64,000 bases of DNA from positions 2,592,001-2,656,000 of the forward strand of contig OZ271918.1 of the NCBI GenBank assembly GCA_965602015.1, given 5' to 3'. Position numbers and translations under genes: made by a program. Shown one piece after another: positions 2,027-22,071 of the stretch. The DNA comes from Salinispira sp. GTDB taxonomy: Bacteria; Spirochaetota; Spirochaetia; DSM-27196; Salinispiraceae. The notes under the pieces were generated by a model. It had not been told where the DNA came from. It did no database searches and saw only the letters and a list, made by a program, of their open reading frames with translations. Within the stretch, counting starts at the first letter, position 1; each line of letters starts with the position of its first letter.

Positions 2027-4834
2027 ATGATTCGAAAGAACAATCGGAACACTGTTTTTACGCATAAAGGCCTTGTAGCGGCAATCGCGGCCCTACTGGC
2101 GTTCACCGCATGTCAGACCGCCGGGACGGATCAGGACATATCTCAGGCAGCTGGCTCTACGGAACCGGTTTTAACCGCTGAACAGATGCCTCCAATTCCC
2201 GAGGGGCACTTACGGGTGCACTACGTCAGGAACGACGAGGTGTACGACACTATGGTGCTGTGGCTTTGGAATGATACCACCTGGGAAGGCGTCAGCTGGC
2301 CCGAGGGTCTGGAAAAAATCGGCGTCGGGCCATACGGGGCTTTTTACGATGTTCCGCTGGCGGAGAATCCCGCAACCCTTGGGATGGTGGTTGTCGATAA
2401 GCTCCTGGGCGATCCGGGTAAGGACGGGGGCGATAAAACTTTTCAGCTCCTCAACCGCTACAATGAGGTCTGGCTTCGTCAGGGAGATGATGAAGTCTAT
2501 GTCAGCTCAAATTTCGAAAAGCCCATTGGAATTACCGGCGCAAGGGTCCTGGCCGACAATGTCGTTTCCGTTATCTTCGTCACCACTCAGGGGCTCGATG
2601 AGGCGGCGGTACTCGATCAGCTTTCAGTAACCACCCAGGGCGGCGACCCACTTGAAATAACGCAGCTTGAGTTCCTCCGGGACCGGCGAACCGTTCTGGC
2701 GACCGTAGAGGGGGCAGGAGACAGTGCACCGCTTAATGTCGGTTTTGAAGACCGGGTTCTGCTGGCAAATAAGGGCTGGGAATTCATTGATTTCACCTAC
2801 GGATACGACGGCGAACTGGGAGTCTTTTTGAACGAAGACAACAGCGCGACGCTGAAAATGTGGTCCCCAACGGTGGCAAACGTTCAGGTCGTTCTATACG
2901 ATAAAGACGATGCCGAATTTGTAGTTAGAGACGATATCCAAATGACTCTCGGCGATCGGGGGGTGTGGTCAGTAACCCTCAATGAGAGCAACACCGGAAT
3001 TGCCGACTTACGGGGATATTTCTACCACTACAAGGTTGATGCGAACGGCGACGGCAGGGCCCGTTTGGCTCTTGATCCCTATGCGCCGAGTCTCGCCGCA
3101 TATAATTCCACCCGGACGAATGAGCTTGCGAAGGCGGCGATTGTCGATATCGGAGACATCGGACCCGAGCTCGACTTCGCCGACATTGCCGGGTTCGAAA
3201 AACGGGATGACGCGATAATCTGGGAAGCCCATGTGCGGGACGTCACCTCTGATCCTTCAATAGAAAACATGCTCACTTCCCGCTTCGGAACCTATACGGC
3301 GGTTATCGATAAGCTGGACTACGTGCAATCGCTTGGCGTCACCCACATCCAACTGCTTCCCGTGATGTCGTTCAGATTCGGCGATGAAAGCCGGAACGCC
3401 GAACGGGAGCTCGAATACAATGCCAAGGACGCGAATTTTAATTGGGGATACGACCCGATGAGCTATTTCGCCCTTTCAGGGATGTACAGCCAGGATCCCT
3501 CGGATCCCGAAGCCAGGATTGAAGAATTCAAAACCCTCGTTCAGGCCATCCACGACCGCGGCATGGGCGTAATTCTCGACGTGGTGTACAACCACACCGG
3601 CGACATGCGGGTGCTCGAGGATCTTATGCCCGGGTATTATCATTTTTCCGATGCCGATGGAACTCCACGCTCCTCCTATGGCGGCGGAAGGGTCGCCACC
3701 ACCAGGAGAATGGGCCGCAAGCTTATTCTGGACTCCATCCGCCACTGGCTGGAGGAATATAAAGTCGACGGTTTCCGTTTCGACCTCATGGGCGATATGG
3801 ACGCGGAAACCGTACAGCAAATCTGGGATATGTCCGTGGAAATCAATCCGGACGTGGTGATGGTCGGTGAAGGCTGGAGAACCTATGTTGGCGATGCCGG
3901 CGACCCGCGTCAGGCTGCGGACCAGGATTGGATGCAGTTCACTTCTTCAGTTGGCGTTTTCAGCGATGAGTTTAGAAACGAATTAAAATCCGGCTTCGGC
4001 AGCGAAGGCCAGCCCCGGTTCATCACCGGCGGACCGAGAAGCATCCAGCAGATTTTCGAGAATGTAAAAGCTCAGCCTCGCAACTTCGTGGCTGACGAGC
4101 CCGCGGATGTGGTCACCTATATTGCGGCACACGACAACCTCACCCTGCACGATGTAATTGCTCAATCCTCAAGACTTGACCCAGATGTCCCCGAGATGTC
4201 TGAAGAAATCCATCGACGGATACGATTAGGCAACGGACTGTTACTCACCAGCCAGGGCATTGCATTCCTCCATGCCGGACAGGAATACGGAAGAACGAAG
4301 CAATGGAGAGCTCCGGGCCGACCTCAGGACAAGGGAACATCTATGACCCTGGCCGACGGTACGCCGTTCACCTATCCGCATTTTGTGCATGACAGCTACG
4401 ACAGCTCCGACGCGATTAACATGATCGAATGGCAAAAGGTGCTGGATTCCGATGCATATCCCTTGCACAGCTCCACAGTTTCGTACACCGCAGGCCTCAT
4501 TGCTCTCCGCCGAAGTTCCGATGCCTTCCGCCTGGGCAGCAGAGACATCATAAATCAAAACGTGTTGCTGGTTGATGTTCCAGAGCAGAGGGGCACTGAC
4601 TTGATAATGGCGTGGACAGCCGAAGGCACCGACGGACAGCGCTTCCTCATGCTGTTTAACGGCGATACCGTTGAACGACGCTTCAGTCTGGACATCGAGC
4701 TGGATGAAGCCGAGCTTCTGGTAGACCGGGAACAGGCCGGAACGACGGCCATTAGCAATCCGGCTGGCGTGGAAGAAACGAGAAACGGGGTTGCCCTGGC
4801 TCCCCTCACCTTTGCGGTGTATAAACTAAACTAA
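2027..4834 (+). CDS. pulA: Pullulanase (GH13) lipoprotein with N-terminal CBM41-like and CBM48-like domains
   Basis: Lipobox LAFTAC; LRVHY..LWLWND CBM41-like region; FNWGYDP pullulanase signature; DVVYNH, DGFRFDLMG, GEGW and AHDN catalytic motifs. Confidence 0.93.
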   Translation: MIRKNNRNTVFTHKGLVAAIAALLAFTACQTAGTDQDISQAAGSTEPVLTAEQMPPIPEGHLRVHYVRNDEVYDTMVLWLWNDTTWEGVSWPEGLEKIGVGPYGAFYDVPLAENPATLGMVVVDKLLGDPGKDGGDKTFQLLNRYNEVWLRQGDDEVYVSSNFEKPIGITGARVLADNVVSVIFVTTQGLDEAAVLDQLSVTTQGGDPLEITQLEFLRDRRTVLATVEGAGDSAPLNVGFEDRVLLANKGWEFIDFTYGYDGELGVFLNEDNSATLKMWSPTVANVQVVLYDKDDAEFVVRDDIQMTLGDRGVWSVTLNESNTGIADLRGYFYHYKVDANGDGRARLALDPYAPSLAAYNSTRTNELAKAAIVDIGDIGPELDFADIAGFEKRDDAIIWEAHVRDVTSDPSIENMLTSRFGTYTAVIDKLDYVQSLGVTHIQLLPVMSFRFGDESRNAERELEYNAKDANFNWGYDPMSYFALSGMYSQDPSDPEARIEEFKTLVQAIHDRGMGVILDVVYNHTGDMRVLEDLMPGYYHFSDADGTPRSSYGGGRVATTRRMGRKLILDSIRHWLEEYKVDGFRFDLMGDMDAETVQQIWDMSVEINPDVVMVGEGWRTYVGDAGDPRQAADQDWMQFTSSVGVFSDEFRNELKSGFGSEGQPRFITGGPRSIQQIFENVKAQPRNFVADEPADVVTYIAAHDNLTLHDVIAQSSRLDPDVPEMSEEIHRRIRLGNGLLLTSQGIAFLHAGQEYGRTKQWRAPGRPQDKGTSMTLADGTPFTYPHFVHDSYDSSDAINMIEWQKVLDSDAYPLHSSTVSYTAGLIALRRSSDAFRLGSRDIINQNVLLVDVPEQRGTDLIMAWTAEGTDGQRFLMLFNGDTVERRFSLDIELDEAELLVDREQAGTTAISNPAGVEETRNGVALAPLTFAVYKLN

Positions 4835-4868
4835 ACGAGTGCCGAAAGGTCTCTAAGCAACAAGCAGG

Positions 4869-4894
4869 ACCCGCCGGCTCTTGCCGGCGGGTTT
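4869..4894 (+). terminator. Rho-independent terminator after pulA
   Basis: ACCCGCCGGC-TCTT-GCCGGCGGGT perfect 10-bp stem followed by a T-rich tract. Confidence 0.75.
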
Positions 4895-4923
4895 AGTTTC
4901 TATGAGTAAATGCAAAGCTCAAA

Positions 4924-5358
4924 TTATTGAGCTTCGTGCACATACACCCGCTTAAGAACCTGGACACCGTACGATGCAATCCCGGTCTCAATTATTGCCA
5001 AAATTGCGGTAAAAACGTCAGGAGAATCTGACATAATATTACCACCCCTCCTGAGAGCGGCTATGAAAATAAAAAGAAAAGCGTAGAAAGCAATTATAAA
5101 AGTAATAGAGAATACCAAAACCAATATCTCGCTTACTTTTAGATTCAGGTCCCAGCCCGTATTCCGGGGCAATGCCGCAACATAGCTCACAGTTATCGAG
5201 ATATATAACCCCATTATTGGCAACAAGACCGAGCCCAGGCTGATTACCCTTGATAGCCCGAGTTGATTGATTGATAAAAATAAATACGTCAGGACGGTTA
5301 TATGTCCAAACAACACGAGTAGTGATGAGATAAATGATGAAATTGACACCCTGTTCAT
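4924..5358 (-). CDS. Uncharacterised ~4-TM membrane protein (third gene of the AT-rich island)
   Basis: 144 aa with four hydrophobic segments; GGAGG RBS upstream; co-oriented 15 bp after the previous gene. Confidence 0.75.
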   Translation of the reverse strand: MNRVSISSFISSLLVLFGHITVLTYLFLSINQLGLSRVISLGSVLLPIMGLYISITVSYVAALPRNTGWDLNLKVSEILVLVFSITFIIAFYAFLFIFIAALRRGGNIMSDSPDVFTAILAIIETGIASYGVQVLKRVYVHEAQ

Positions 5359-5373
5359 CGTTTTTCCTCCTCT

Positions 5374-6405
5374 TTATTCAAAAACCTCAATGAGCACATC
5401 AGCGAGCGATCTGTTCTCTTCCTGCTCAGCAAGCCACCAGTTTTGCTTTCCTTCCTGATTCGGAACGCGCGGACTGCCGTTAGCAATCATCGTCATTACG
5501 AAAACAGAGAAATCGTCCTGATGCGCGACGACAATAATTTCATACAACCTCCAGCGATCACTATCGGAAAGCCCCAGATCGTCAAAAGCCCAAATCGGTT
5601 TTAGCTTAAAGTGAGCGTAATTTTCAGTGATGACAGGAGGTTCTCGGTACATCTTGCGGATGAAATTGGGATCAAAAACATCGCCATATGGCAAATCTCG
5701 TTCGGTCAAATATCTGAAATCCTGCTGACGAAGATACCGCGCAAGCTTATCTTCCGCTTGGAAGATGAATCTGGAGACTTCCTGCCCATCATAGGTGTAT
5801 GTCACTCCGGTTATTCCGAAAGGCCGACCGGATCCTGCACTGTTTCTGGCTTGTTGACTGACTGTGCTTCCGGTAACTATCCTAATTGGGAGAGGTCCGG
5901 TTCGTATGCCTATTCGATATAGACCAGAATCGTAATAGTTGTTGCTGACAAGTTCGAGTTCATCCAAGGAAAGTAAATCAACTTCATTTCCAAGAAGATA
6001 GTCGCCTTGAAGGAAATCCTGATTTAACAACCCGGTCTCAGAATCTAAAAACTCAGAAGGAAAAAAGGGTGTTAAATCCAGATCGGTTTCAAATAACTCG
6101 ATACGAGGAATTTCATTTGATTGGTCCTGCACCAGAGAGTTTATGATTCCTGCGACATTCGAATCGAATAGCGATCTGTTTCGTGCCAATAGGTTCACTT
6201 CATTAGGCGTGAGCATCCATTCTACATATGTATCTTCTTGGGTAGTGTCCTGGAAAAGCAGGAAGTCTGAATCAACGCGGAGCTCGGATTCAAAGTCCTG
6301 AGTAGGAATCCGTATTACATAATCTTCAAGTTCTGAATTTCCTTCCGGGAACAAGCTCATATGGGAAAACGCGATGACACACAGTAAGCAAACGATGAGT
6401 TTCAT
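5374..6405 (-). CDS. Uncharacterised secreted acidic protein (second gene of the island)
   Basis: 343 aa; signal-peptide-like N-terminus MKLIVCLLCVIAFSHMSLF; GAGG RBS; no recognisable catalytic motif. Confidence 0.75.
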   Translation of the reverse strand: MKLIVCLLCVIAFSHMSLFPEGNSELEDYVIRIPTQDFESELRVDSDFLLFQDTTQEDTYVEWMLTPNEVNLLARNRSLFDSNVAGIINSLVQDQSNEIPRIELFETDLDLTPFFPSEFLDSETGLLNQDFLQGDYLLGNEVDLLSLDELELVSNNYYDSGLYRIGIRTGPLPIRIVTGSTVSQQARNSAGSGRPFGITGVTYTYDGQEVSRFIFQAEDKLARYLRQQDFRYLTERDLPYGDVFDPNFIRKMYREPPVITENYAHFKLKPIWAFDDLGLSDSDRWRLYEIIVVAHQDDFSVFVMTMIANGSPRVPNQEGKQNWWLAEQEENRSLADVLIEVFE

Positions 6406-6414
6406 GGAATCACC

Positions 6415-7242
6415 TCAAGTATGTTCTTCATCCAGGTCCAAAGCGAGTTCATCGGTTGCATCAACGATGTCGAAAACGCCATCTTTCTGTAGAAGCTTTC
6501 GATCCTTCAATGAAAGACTGTCCAATGCTTCCGCCTCGGAACTCCCCATTAAGATTTTTTGCTGAATACTCTTTGGTCGGAGATGTCTTCTTGCCCTGAT
6601 AACAGATACCCGATAAGCAAGCGTTCCTCCCTCGGAACCATCGATCTCGTAACCCACGGATTTTTTCCAAACCACGGAAAAATCTGAATTGACATGAAAA
6701 TTCCGGATATTCGCATCGTTGTATTTTATTCCAACTTCACCGCCATTCGATCCGCTGTACACCAGGTAATATTTTTCAGCAACGACAATGCCTCGTACAA
6801 GATATGTGCTCGCGGGGAGGTCTCCTTCTACGAATGCTTGCAGCACCTTATCCCGCATATCGTTGATATTGCTAAGCGTGATCTGGTGCATGTTTTTCGC
6901 TTTTAGGAACAATTGATTCTTTGCGTTAAAGGTGATTTTCATTCCCAATTCTTTCTCACCCAGGAAGTCCATACCGGGCATGCTGCCATTGGCGTTAAAA
7001 ATAATATCCACGCCGGAGAGAGAGCTGATATTTCTGCTTACCTTCGTCCCAACGGTATAATTCTCTTTGCTTACTCCGAACTCAGAGCCATCCAGGATTT
7101 CCATTGAATCCCTTCTACGTCTCAAGACATCACCGATGCTTATGGTAGAATCGCCGGTACGCAACGGAATAAATCGTCTTCCGTAAATCGTTTTTATCTC
7201 TCTTCTGAGAAGTCCTGCTTGACGGATCGAAATACCAGCCAT
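6415..7242 (-). CDS. Putative bacterial gasdermin-like pore-forming protein
   Basis: 275 aa; the order of elements (FIPL..ISIGDVL; alternating beta hairpins; LSNINDMRDKVL helix; YLVRGIVVA; TLAYRVSVI; acidic tail DGVFDIVD) parallels bGSDM sequences as recalled from memory; GGAGG RBS. Confidence 0.6.
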   Translation of the reverse strand: MAGISIRQAGLLRREIKTIYGRRFIPLRTGDSTISIGDVLRRRRDSMEILDGSEFGVSKENYTVGTKVSRNISSLSGVDIIFNANGSMPGMDFLGEKELGMKITFNAKNQLFLKAKNMHQITLSNINDMRDKVLQAFVEGDLPASTYLVRGIVVAEKYYLVYSGSNGGEVGIKYNDANIRNFHVNSDFSVVWKKSVGYEIDGSEGGTLAYRVSVIRARRHLRPKSIQQKILMGSSEAEALDSLSLKDRKLLQKDGVFDIVDATDELALDLDEEHT

Positions 7243-7445
7243 ATTGCCTCCAATTCTAAAGATTTATATGATAATTATAAATTGTGATTTGCTATCCTGT
7301 TAGGTTCAGATAATGCAAAATTGAAAAAAAATAATTATTTATTTAATGGTGAATCCGAGTCTGAATATGTCTAGCTTATGAACTTCTCAGCAAGATTTCG
7401 GATGGGGCATAAGAAACTCTTCGGGCATGCAGATTGACAAGGATC

Positions 7446-8861
7446 TTACTGATCAACCGCTATCTGATTCTTGCCCCGCTCCTTGGCACGGTAGAGCTGG
7501 GCATCGGCCCGGGCAATGGCATTCTCGAGGTCTTCATCCGGCAGGTACTGGGCGATTCCCATGGACACACTGAAGGTTGCCGCGGGAGTGACTGATCCTG
7601 CCGATCGCTCGTGAATGTGTGCGGCGATTTTTTCACAGATTTCCCGGGCGCCGCGCATCGTCGTTTTTGGAAAGCCGAGAAGAAATTCATCTCCGCCCAG
7701 GCGCATAACAATATCGCTTGAACGAATGCTGTTGTTGACTGTCTTTGCCAAATCGGTCAGCACGAGATCTCCGGTATTGTGACCGTGCTTATCGTTTATT
7801 TCCTTAAAATTATCCACATCCAACATCGCCAGGGATAATGGTTCGCCATGGCGGTTGGCCAGCCCGCACTGCTGAGTCAGGAGGGTCATGCCCAGCCGCC
7901 GGTTAGCCAGTGATGTCAGATCGTCATGCAGGGCCTGATCCTCAAGTTCCCTGCTTAGTTGAACCAGGTTGAGCGATCTCTTTCTGAGTCGTATCTGCTG
8001 GAGGATAAGAAGCAAAAGGGAGAAGGCCGCAATGGGATACACCAGCAGCCGGGATTGCATTAACCGGGGGTCCAGAGGCGGAGAACTGCTTAACTCCATA
8101 ATCCAGGTGCCATTGGGTACCTGGATTGAAATACTAACCTCAGGATTATCGAACTCAGCGCCGTTGGAGAAAAAAAGCGGGGGCTCCGCCTGATCCGGAT
8201 CATCGCCGACAATCCGCACTCCAATGTCCCCGCCGCTGGTGTTCCTTACCCCATCGGGAAGCATTTCATCGACATATAAAATCGCCGTGGAAAATCCCCA
8301 GAAGCTGCCGGGGGAATCATCGGCAAAAATCGGCTTGCGGGCAATCACCGCCAGCCTGTCGTTCTGAATCAGCCGCAGCGGCCCGACGAAGGTCAGTTCC
8401 CTCGATTCTATGGCTCTGAGGGCGCCGTCGTTGCGACGCTGATCGGCCAAAAGATCATGGCCGAATGCGCCTTTATGCTCTTCCCATGGATATATGTAGG
8501 TGACCAGTCCGTCGGGTGCCAATTGCAGCGAGCCGATAAACGGACTTTGGGCGCTGATTTCCGCTGCCCAACTGTCAAATCGTTCGGGATCGTAATCGGA
8601 TTCCTCCAAGAGAATGTGAAGAGCATCGGTTGCGAAAATACCCTGTGAAATAGACTGCTGGAGCTGCTGGCCCCAGCTGGTTCCCAGTGAAAACAGGCTG
8701 TTTCGCAGTTGTGCCCGTTGATACCGCTGCTCGCTGCTGATGGCCGATTCGAATGTGATAACGAGCACGGCAAAGAGCCCTGTCAGAAATGCGCAGATAA
8801 GCACCAGCAGCCACAACGGCATAACGGATCGTTTTTGCTTGCTGCCTGCACGGTATTCCAT
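7446..8861 (-). CDS. Membrane diguanylate cyclase, CHASE + GGDEF
   Basis: TM-CHASE (LQLAPDG..YIYP..GHDLL..FVGPLRLIQ)-TM; DxLTxLxNRR; RSSD I-site and RLGGDEF; start reassigned to the ATG at 8861. Confidence 0.9.
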   Translation of the reverse strand: MEYRAGSKQKRSVMPLWLLVLICAFLTGLFAVLVITFESAISSEQRYQRAQLRNSLFSLGTSWGQQLQQSISQGIFATDALHILLEESDYDPERFDSWAAEISAQSPFIGSLQLAPDGLVTYIYPWEEHKGAFGHDLLADQRRNDGALRAIESRELTFVGPLRLIQNDRLAVIARKPIFADDSPGSFWGFSTAILYVDEMLPDGVRNTSGGDIGVRIVGDDPDQAEPPLFFSNGAEFDNPEVSISIQVPNGTWIMELSSSPPLDPRLMQSRLLVYPIAAFSLLLLILQQIRLRKRSLNLVQLSRELEDQALHDDLTSLANRRLGMTLLTQQCGLANRHGEPLSLAMLDVDNFKEINDKHGHNTGDLVLTDLAKTVNNSIRSSDIVMRLGGDEFLLGFPKTTMRGAREICEKIAAHIHERSAGSVTPAATFSVSMGIAQYLPDEDLENAIARADAQLYRAKERGKNQIAVDQ

Positions 8862-9069: not shown

Positions 9070-9573
9070 ATGTATTATAAATTCTCACGACTGGCAAAAT
9101 TTACCATCGTATTTACCATGATTTTAAATACAGCGGTGATCCTGCTGCACTCGTTTAATACCTATCGGATGATCGAAAGCAACAAGCTCATCATCGCAAA
9201 AATGGAAGAGCTAAATGTCCTGAGAGACACGGCAATCCGTTACCTCCAGAGAGAAGGCCATGATTTATTTGTCGGAGGCGAGTTTGCCACATTGGCGGGA
9301 ATAGTGCTCGGTCTGCTCGCCCTGTTTTCCCTGTATAAGTTCGCTCAGGATAACAGTTTCTTTTTTGCCATTGCAGCCTCGTTTTTTTGCCTGCTAACCA
9401 CCTTCGTGGGCGGCCTTCTGCTGTTTTATGTGATTTTCTCCGGAAAAAGCGAAGTAGCTATCGAAAGCGAAGAGCGGACCTATCGAAGTCAGTGGGAGCA
9501 GTTCATCAGCCGCAAAAGCAATGAACAGAGAGAAGACTCGCCTCCGCTTCACCACCCGCATAATCGGACATAA
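9070..9573 (+). CDS. Hypothetical membrane protein
   Basis: 167 aa with 3-4 TM segments; GGAAGG RBS. Confidence 0.7.
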   Translation: MYYKFSRLAKFTIVFTMILNTAVILLHSFNTYRMIESNKLIIAKMEELNVLRDTAIRYLQREGHDLFVGGEFATLAGIVLGLLALFSLYKFAQDNSFFFAIAASFFCLLTTFVGGLLLFYVIFSGKSEVAIESEERTYRSQWEQFISRKSNEQREDSPPLHHPHNRT

Positions 9574-9604
9574 AAACGCCGGCAATCCCGAGAGGTCGCC
9601 GGCG
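9572..9604 (-). terminator. Terminator of the opp operon (possibly bidirectional)
   Basis: CGCCGGC...GCCGGCG stem with a T5 tract on the minus strand. Confidence 0.55.
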
Positions 9605-9628
9605 AATCGTAAACAGGAAAATAAGCGC

Positions 9629-9856
9629 TTAGCCGAATATCCACATGGTGATGGCGTAGTACAAAAACAGTACCACAAGAGCCAGGGGCAATATTGTGGT
9701 GAATGCGGCGATAATCAGGGCGGGAAGATCGCCTTTATCGGTTTCGGTTTTCTCCCTCAGTTCCCTGAGAAGCTCCTTTTCTTCCGCGGCGGTTCGCCGC
9801 GGAGATTTTAAGGGGTTGCGCTTAAAAATGTCGCCGATTTTGAAGTCAGAACTCAT
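9629..9856 (-). CDS. Small membrane protein co-transcribed with oppF
   Basis: 75 aa; charged N-terminus and C-terminal TM (DKGDLPALIIAAF...); ATGA overlap with the oppF stop. Confidence 0.7.
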   Translation of the reverse strand: MSSDFKIGDIFKRNPLKSPRRTAAEEKELLRELREKTETDKGDLPALIIAAFTTILPLALVVLFLYYAITMWIFG

Positions 9857-21135: not shown

Positions 21136-22071
21136 CTACAGCCCGCTGGCTGCGTCTTGCAGTTGATCATAATATGCCTTCTCAAACTCTGCCGGAGGCA
21201 TATATCCCAGGATTTCATAAATCCGTTTATTGTTGTACCAGCTTACCCATTCCAGCGTAGCAGCCTCAATAGCATCCAGGTTTTTCCACGGTCCTTTACG
21301 GTAGATCATTTCGGATTTGTACAGTCCGTTTATGGTTTCAGCCAGCGCGTTGTCATATGAGCTGCCTACACTCCCAACAGATGGGGCAATGCCTTCTTCT
21401 GCTAAGCGGTCAGAATACCGGATTGACAGATACTGGCTCCCACGATCACTGTGGTGGATCAGCCCATTTTCAGGTTGCCTTGCCCACAGGGCTTGTTCCA
21501 GAGCATCCAGCGTCAGCTCTGCGCTCATGGACCTCGAGGCACGCCATCCGACGATCATTCGTGAAAATACATCGATGATAAATGCCACATATACAAAACC
21601 CACCCAAGACGCGCAATAAGTGAAATCCGCCACCCACAGCTGATTCGGACGGTCGGCACTGAATTCCCTGTGCACCAAATCGAGCGGACGTTCATTTTTC
21701 GGGTCCGGTACTGTGGTTCGCACCTTGCGGCCTCGTATGACGCCTTTAAGCCCCATGACAGCCATGAGACGGGCCACGGTACATCGTGCGATCTGGAATC
21801 CTTCTCGCTTCAGCTGGTGCCAGACCTTGCGAACGCCGTAAACCTCATAATTCTCATCCCAAACCCTCTGGATCTCTGGCTTCAGGATTTCATCGCGCTT
21901 TACCCTTGCGGGAGCTGTTTCAGGGTGTTTTACTCGCTTTTTCTGTTCGTAGTACACCGAAGGAGCGATTGGCACCTGAGTACAAATCGGCTCGACCCCA
22001 TAGTCATCGCGGTGTTCATCAATGAAGCAGACTATTTCTTGTGTTGGCGGTCGAGCTCCGCCTTCGCGAAA
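21136..22071 (-). CDS. IS3 transposase OrfB (DDE), expressed through a -1 frameshift
   Basis: YGVRKVW; LWVADFTY; HHSDRGSQY; SYDNALAETING; frame open back to the T-TTC motif at 22071-22068. Confidence 0.92.
   Translation of the reverse strand, partial: FREGGARPPTQEIVCFIDEHRDDYGVEPICTQVPIAPSVYYEQKKRVKHPETAPARVKRDEILKPEIQRVWDENYEVYGVRKVWHQLKREGFQIARCTVARLMAVMGLKGVIRGRKVRTTVPDPKNERPLDLVHREFSADRPNQLWVADFTYCASWVGFVYVAFIIDVFSRMIVGWRASRSMSAELTLDALEQALWARQPENGLIHHSDRGSQYLSIRYSDRLAEEGIAPSVGSVGSSYDNALAETINGLYKSEMIYRKGPWKNLDAIEAATLEWVSWYNNKRIYEILGYMPPAEFEKAYYDQLQDAASGL

Follow-up and report, generated by a model that had tools for sequence, protein, structure and literature searches.

A clade of bacterial gasdermin-fold genes without a neighbouring caspase, seen from a low-GC operon of Salinispira sp.

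Bacterial gasdermins (bGSDMs) are mostly encoded next to a protease: in the set of Johnson et al. (bioRxiv 10.1101/2021.06.07.447441) 43 of 50 adjoin one and 7 do not. Autoinhibition is by a short C-terminal peptide, of 16-29 residues in described bGSDMs, and the activating cut falls in an exposed loop some 12 amino acids (aa) long that precedes it; over bGSDMs in general the C-terminal peptides span 17-67 aa (PMC13475620). In the literature compared here each bacterial gasdermin that was tested is opened by its neighbouring protease, and the protease-less minority is left unexplained. We analysed a stretch of 64,000 nucleotides (nt) from Salinispira sp. (contig OZ271918.1, hereafter the window), in which gene 1 (6415-7242, complementary strand) encodes P0001, a gasdermin-fold protein of 275 aa, as part of a three-gene operon. 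A preliminary description made from the letters of the window had noted that no protease accompanies it, on the premise that described bGSDM loci carry a cognate protease; the premise holds for the 43 cases above and fails for the other 7. The missing caspase is a trait of the clade to which gene 1 belongs and not a local loss.

Scanned as single sequences against Pfam, PADLOC, NCBIfam, PHROGs and the Protein Data Bank (PDB), P0001 and the products of the two other operon genes, P0002 and P0003, gave nothing significant (it may be noted that the Pfam library used did not include PF26164). Gene 1 is nevertheless a gasdermin-fold protein by profile, language-model features and predicted fold, which agree with each other and with the preliminary description. 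In the feature ranking of the ESM Atlas the clusters bearing Bact_GSDM came out on top (0.97-0.98), the Atlas recognition value of 1970 being under the 2300 mark and weak if taken alone. An unindexed search of 1.84 billion representatives with gene 1 returned 42 matches, 23 of them at E <= 1e-10 (a count that includes the truncated public call of gene 1 itself), and when a profile built from 41 of these sequences was compared with the PDB the top five of seven matches were bGSDM chains (E 0.0014-0.03). The AlphaFold2 model of P0001 has a predicted local distance difference test score (pLDDT) of 92 and a predicted template modelling score (pTM) of 0.89. With this model as query, gasdermins fill the top 8 rows of Foldseek and the top 14 rows of VIA; the best match is the active oligomer from Vitiosangium (8SL0; Z 8.7, root-mean-square deviation 4.3, 154 aligned residues), and chains of CDC-like proteins (CDCL) rank below the gasdermins with Z of 5.1-5.5. 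The NCBIfam model prok_gasdermin (NF051890, cut-off 100 bits) does not match P0001; the clade member at locus L025 scores 14.6 bits against it, and weak matches were seen for 8 of the 41 alignment rows (best E 0.0084). Also, neither gene 1 nor the rest of the operon has a PADLOC match, a check that the preliminary description had proposed. Surveys that use these libraries would therefore miss the clade. In the public collection gene 1 appears as a 229-aa form starting at Met47 (P0004), which is without the conserved N-terminal helix. We favour the start at Met1, giving 275 aa, because both the homologues and the ribosome-binding site support it. By analogy with the bGSDM family, the protein would form pores and would serve in abortive infection against phages.

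P0001 is made up of a basic N-terminal region (net charge +7 in residues 1-45), a core that runs to about residue 217, a predicted three-helix module (218-256), a last strand (257-261) and an acidic helical tail, with a net charge of -8 over residues 257-275. It contains no Cys at all and therefore cannot carry an N-terminal palmitoyl group. In the alignment A1, 2 of 19 N-terminally complete rows have a Cys within the first 10 residues; distant relatives of the clade have one within the first 12 residues in 2 of 20 cases, and the bGSDM of Gillisia is also reported without it. The interval from Tyr210 to Asp261, which comes behind the last long strand of the core, is exactly 52 residues long in 24 of the 26 clade rows, the identity of the module within the clade being 0.28 as against 0.34-0.37 for the core. 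In the distant relatives the same interval is a linker of visibly variable length (identity 0.13 as against 0.23-0.26 for their core), followed by a short strand and an acidic end, and it is with this C-terminal end that the last strand and acidic end of the clade align. A last strand with a tail of 9-25 residues is present at the clade C-termini, and for the interval the model predicts, at pLDDT 94-98, three helices followed by a strand and an acidic helix. From this we infer that the clade keeps the inhibitory tail, and that the flexible cleavage loop has been replaced by a folded module whose residues 218-256 are predicted to form the three helices. The structure aligner places the last strand of P0001 on the end of the active Vitiosangium fragment, and the limit drawn here between pore domain and inhibitor is therefore tentative.

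A tree was built from 47 rows, without P0024, the 1399-aa P0034 and fragments below 230 aa; in it a long branch (1.51, support 100/100) sets 27 close relatives apart from the rest. Genomic context came from a degenerate motif scan, which picked out 23 loci, 8 of them in genomes and 15 in metagenomes; 12 of the 23 are true clade members and the 11 false positives were dropped, and since L022 and L039 are the same locus, 11 distinct clade loci are left. The named loci belong to Bacteroidota, and L035 is a GC-rich metagenome contig. The clade is rare: a search of 60 relatives did not find gene 1, and no clade member was found in 400 genomes of the phylum of Salinispira or in 400 genomes of the class of the clade genome G061, where two distant gasdermins turned up. 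Also, none of the three operon genes has a match in the plasmid collection, and viral contigs gave no match to a stricter motif. Between 11 clade genes synonymous changes have reached or nearly reached saturation, yet the proteins are full length and 34-80% identical, and therefore the genes have been maintained by purifying selection. On this ground we rejected pseudogene status.

On the protease side, the three operon genes have no protease match in Pfam, NCBIfam, PADLOC or PHROGs, and 13 further open reading frames (ORFs) of the window, the GGDEF and 9070-9573 genes among them, have no match to a protease family, so that the earlier remark on the want of a caspase, CHAT, trypsin or subtilase protein nearby is borne out by the library scans. 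At the clade loci 48 neighbouring ORFs were scanned with no Pfam match to C14, CHAT, S8 or trypsin. These are the nearest neighbours at 9 distinct loci and the genes shared by L022 and L039, to which a clade gasdermin and two ORFs of the discarded loci are added; L035 was inspected by eye instead. Simple loss of the protease at the present locus, which the preliminary description had allowed for, is thus contradicted, because no such protease was seen at the loci of 11 distinct relatives either. As a control, the two distant gasdermins from the 400 genomes each have a protease-like gene next to them, caspase-like in one case (NCBIfam E 1e-14) and CHAT-like, as judged by eye, in the other. The complete genome G061 has an intact clade gene and no C14, CHAT or A4-family gene anywhere, and G062 has no C14 or CHAT gene; three other clade genomes have such genes elsewhere. 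The genome-wide protease searches covered C14 and CHAT. In the genome of the window CHAT was not found, and the two C14 genes present are some 206 and 468 kb away from the operon. Read by eye, both (L010:1417-2352 and L011:1402-3561) have signal-like N-termini, and the one at L011 comes after sigma-factor-like and anti-sigma-like genes. On account of their distance, of these N-termini and of the sigma/anti-sigma-like pair beside one of them, we rejected the two as cognate activators.

A candidate partner was found in some of the relatives. Proteins of 192-242 aa, which we call family A5, are encoded in the operon at 3 of the 11 clade loci, directly upstream of the gasdermin at L024 (8672-9247) and L037 (1297-1872) and as the second gene downstream at L018 (6492-7217). 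A blind search of 400 genomes added 6 members, one of them at L046 (1459-2214), and lengths in the family run from 190 to 270 aa. Over 9 rows a Cys and an Asp are present in all, and a Gln and a His in 8 of 9, a set of residues that we take to be that of papain/calpain-type proteases; A5 has no convincing match in Pfam, NCBIfam or the PDB. Among the 6 blind members four have signal-like N-termini and one is without the Gln and His, and these five have no gasdermin within 1.5 kb. The sixth, at L046, is followed two genes downstream by an unrelated gasdermin that scores 119.5 bits, above the NCBIfam cut-off, and the 9 neighbouring ORFs scanned at that locus have no protease family match. The four A5 members that have the full residue set and no signal-like N-terminus are all in gasdermin operons, of two unrelated lineages. 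Two further samples of 145 genomes gave one stop-containing A5 fragment beside an unconfirmed gasdermin-like gene (L058), which brings the matches to 7 in 690 partly overlapping genome draws. A Fisher test for adjacency of A5 to gasdermins gives p 3e-4, which overstates the significance, as these very loci served to define the family and related members do not count as independent. A5 is absent from the genome of the window, and no A5 remnant was seen in the other clade loci. The gasdermins of L019 and L037 are 80% identical, yet L019 has no A5, and therefore the partner is gained or lost quickly. We regard A5 as a candidate for a new gasdermin-activating protease, as judged from its residues and gene order.

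Some details of these loci may be recorded here. The L046 gasdermin (105-803, identical to L057:4871-5569) is an NCBIfam-positive protein of 233 aa that ends a few residues past its last predicted strand, so that it seems to have no C-terminal inhibitory peptide; between it and the A5 gene lies a helical-looking gene of 163 aa, which might be an inhibitor in trans. At L058 the gasdermin-like gene (2517-3239, 240 aa; NCBIfam E 0.065, hhalign probability 0.4%) is a weak match that was not confirmed, placed between a nuclease-metallopeptidase fusion and the A5 fragment (3290-3460, at the contig end); it might stand for a third lineage of gasdermins. The A5-gasdermin pair of L024 is bracketed by near-identical genes for 143-aa exported proteins (9269-9697 and 7092-7520), so that the pair may have been inserted or exchanged when one copy recombined with the other. 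At L018 (1558-7821) the clade gasdermin heads a co-oriented run with two small membrane proteins, the A5 protein and a membrane patatin, and farther on there is a GmrSD-type endonuclease, which gives the run the appearance of a defence island.

The two other genes of the operon are also on the complementary strand. Gene 2 (5374-6405) encodes P0002, an orphan acidic protein of 343 aa with an isoelectric point of 4.3, and gene 3 (4924-5358) encodes P0003, an orphan membrane protein of 144 aa. P0002 was earlier called secreted, and an N-terminal hydrophobic stretch resembling a signal peptide makes export likely, this stretch being all that the call rests on. As for the four transmembrane segments once ascribed to P0003, three are clear and the fourth falls under the threshold and is doubtful. 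That the 343-aa protein might be a cryptic protease of the Cys type is excluded, as it has no Cys beyond residue 9, and its sequence has no HExxH motif; a Ser- or Asp-type protease could still be concealed in it. If exported, it would be parted from a gasdermin in the cytoplasm and so badly placed to cut it. The Atlas gives a lead for P0002 (0.87 to clusters auto-named PdaC-domain, a lead only), its single-sequence model is uninformative at pLDDT 35, and P0003 has a weak match to PHROG_2524 (E 0.011). Genes 2 and 3 had self-matches only in the protein collection and no match in the plasmids or in 200 genomes of their own phylum, in searches less sensitive than that made for gene 1: the word index, which returned only self-matches for all three proteins, missed relatives of gene 1 at 44% identity. 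A survey of the neighbourhoods, six-frame search included, found a homologue of gene 2 or gene 3 at none of the 11 distinct clade loci, the best P0003 match there being at E 0.09-0.6. Several relatives have genes for membrane or exported proteins beside them, but no one family of these returns from locus to locus, a picture in keeping with cargo regions that vary. Genes 2 and 3 are probably passengers that came in with gene 1 on one acquired piece of DNA.

The layout of the operon is as first described. The three genes are co-oriented with gaps of 9 and 15 bp, a Shine-Dalgarno-like stretch stands 5' of each (GGAGG, GAGGT and GGAGG), and the run lies between a pullulanase gene and a CHASE-GGDEF gene. 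A G+C-rich hairpin at 4867-4894, terminator-like on both strands, separates the operon from the convergent pullulanase gene. The segment 4901-7440 has a GC content of 42.9% as against 53.8% for the genome, an equally low value being found in 1.9% of windows of the same size, and at third codon positions the GC content (GC3) of the three genes is 0.45-0.47 as against a median of 0.64 (ORFs of at least 400 aa, 1.2% of which are as low). The AT-richness noted earlier is thus confirmed, and on the low GC and GC3 the segment was therefore likely acquired horizontally. Promoter-like sites are at chance level (5 found, 5.6 expected). A repeat search found no convincing flanking or attachment-site-like repeat at the island edges, no integrase ORF is present there, and comparison with an empty site was uninformative as the island flanks are without synteny in the three relatives tested. 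A direct repeat of 15 nt with 80% identity does occur at both edges (4909-4923 and 7312-7326), which may be due to chance; it is one of 18 similar short families and therefore was not counted as evidence. An IS-type transposase gene (Integrase-core and HTH_21) is located at 21139-21975, at a distance of 14 kb from the operon, with a DNA-alkylation-repair-like gene on either side.

How such a gasdermin is opened can be read in several ways. We give about an even chance to gene 1 being an intact stand-alone suicide pore that the C-terminal strand and acidic tail keep closed until a protease acting in trans opens it, with genes 2 and 3 as passengers. The shut state would follow the autoinhibition of the bGSDM family; release in the present genome would come from a cut by an unlinked protease of the host or of a phage, the weakest step of the proposal, and in three relatives the releasing protease would be the operon-encoded A5 protein. 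The preliminary description had offered a non-canonical route or a distant protease, and this is still the best reading of activation. Several points weigh against the stand-alone pore. No activating protease was identified in its own genome, where both C14 proteins have signal-like N-termini by eye and A5 is absent; the model has no low-confidence loop at residues 191-270 (block means 94-98), unlike the exposed loop of described bGSDMs, and therefore no cut site is evident; and the structural scores are modest (Foldseek template modelling score about 0.3, Z 8.7). The clade loci mostly lie outside defence islands, restriction-type genes being near only L019 and L018. Other genes of peptidase-like kind do occur at single loci, namely a CHAP-like gene on the other strand at L022, a secreted glutaminase at L037 and an alpha/beta hydrolase at L023, and an ORF at L035 resembles what we take to be the motif of peptidase C15. 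Also, the flanks at L029, L037, L021 and L035 are short, the motif scan misses clade members that do not have the motif, and tree placement is available for 10 of the 11 loci, 9 of which fall in one Bacteroidota-rich subclade and so are not independent.

If no protease acts at all, the three-helix module may bind a phage protein or another cue and thereby draw the inhibitory tail away from the core. The fixed length of the module and its well-ordered prediction speak for such a sensor-effector, as do the want of a recurring protease at 8 of 11 loci and at the present one, the lack of C14, CHAT and A4-family genes in G061, and cleavage-independent gasdermins known in animals and fungi; the P0001 model is also nearer to pore-state gasdermins than to closed bGSDM crystals (Z 8.7 vs 5.5-6.1). 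But the conformation of an AlphaFold model says nothing on how the protein rests, conservation is lower in the module than in the core, and a putative Cys protease is in the operon at 3 of 11 loci. We hold this reading unlikely. A bolder form of it, that the lineage dropped caspase control, that the module senses a phage cue directly in what would be the first cleavage-independent bacterial gasdermin, and that the partner, where present, is of an unrecognised papain-like family serving several unrelated gasdermin lineages, appears to us doubtful. The A5 operons, set against the 7 matches in 690 draws, together with the gain or loss of A5 between L037 and L019, could instead mean that A5 is the cognate activator of the clade and that loci without it, the present one included, are dormant leftovers. 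This we consider decidedly improbable: the genes without a partner are undamaged and have been kept by purifying selection over deep divergences, no remnant of A5 was seen in the other loci or in this genome, and its protease activity is suggested by motif only.

Little weight can be given to the proposal of the preliminary description that the exported and the membrane protein act as sensors for envelope or phage signals, or as immunity proteins, and form with the gasdermin a three-gene unit that controls it. The tight spacing and common foreign base composition of the operon are in its favour, and unrelated small membrane or signal-bearing genes flank L018, L021, L022, L024, L025 and L029; however, these make up no recurring family, no search turned up a homologue of gene 2 or gene 3 (though the searches were less sensitive than that for gene 1), and their co-occurrence with the clade at 0 of 11 loci, an outcome that the preliminary description had itself named as refuting, speaks against a conserved system. 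The chance is slimmest for a toxin that acts outward in antagonism, like the pyroptolysins or CDC-like proteins, with the neighbours there for export or immunity. Pyroptolysins are indeed gasdermin-fold proteins of mostly solitary genes, CDCL chains come next after gasdermins in the fold search, and the neighbours are often exported proteins. But P0001 has no hydrophobic signal segment and no beta-sandwich targeting domain, its 275 aa and helical C-terminus compare with 325-400 aa in those toxins, and no immunity gene recurs.

Protease-less bGSDMs are already on record in the 7 of 50 cases, and Table S1 of Johnson et al. may list members of this clade; the unannotated gasdermin clusters reported in PMC10584675 could include it as well. 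We found neither a bGSDM clade without a caspase nor a papain-like partner of gasdermins described in the literature covered, which was available in part and left most subscription journals outside (PMC10153256, PMC10312443, PMC10989679 and 10.1101/2025.09.30.679545 were among the works compared), and the clade is apparently an undescribed gasdermin branch. With intact single genes and a distinct C-terminal module, one of them in a complete genome without C14 or CHAT genes, it gives a testable set for the protease-less gap, and A5 points to a candidate new family of gasdermin-activating proteases.

Compared with known systems, gene 1 shares with the pyroptolysins (bioRxiv 10.64898/2026.10.05.756811) a gasdermin-like domain and a mostly solitary gene, whereas these have a CDC-like beta-sandwich, are 325-400 aa long and act from outside on sterol membranes. 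It is also like the gasdermin of Trichoplax and RCD-1 of Neurospora (8JYW, 8JYZ; PMC13475620), single-domain proteins with no linked protease that are both among the top five structural matches of P0001; unlike these cleavage-independent eukaryotic gasdermins it has no Cys for a disulfide switch, and its genome has one gasdermin gene only, so that no heterodimer partner was found. From the bGSDM-protease systems gene 1 differs in having no adjacent C14, CHAT, trypsin or subtilase gene, in the missing palmitoylation Cys (typical there, not universal), in scoring far below the NF051890 cut-off, and, as a clade, in the fixed-length module, predicted helical, in place of the variable linker of its relatives. 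Yet it is these systems that it resembles in general build: as in the bGSDMs of Runella, Bradyrhizobium and Vitiosangium (7N50-7N52, 8SL0; for CARD systems PMC10312443), the protein has the fold of a gasdermin N-terminal domain, about 270 aa and a cytoplasmic location, and instead of a large C-terminal domain it carries a short C-terminal extension with an acidic end.

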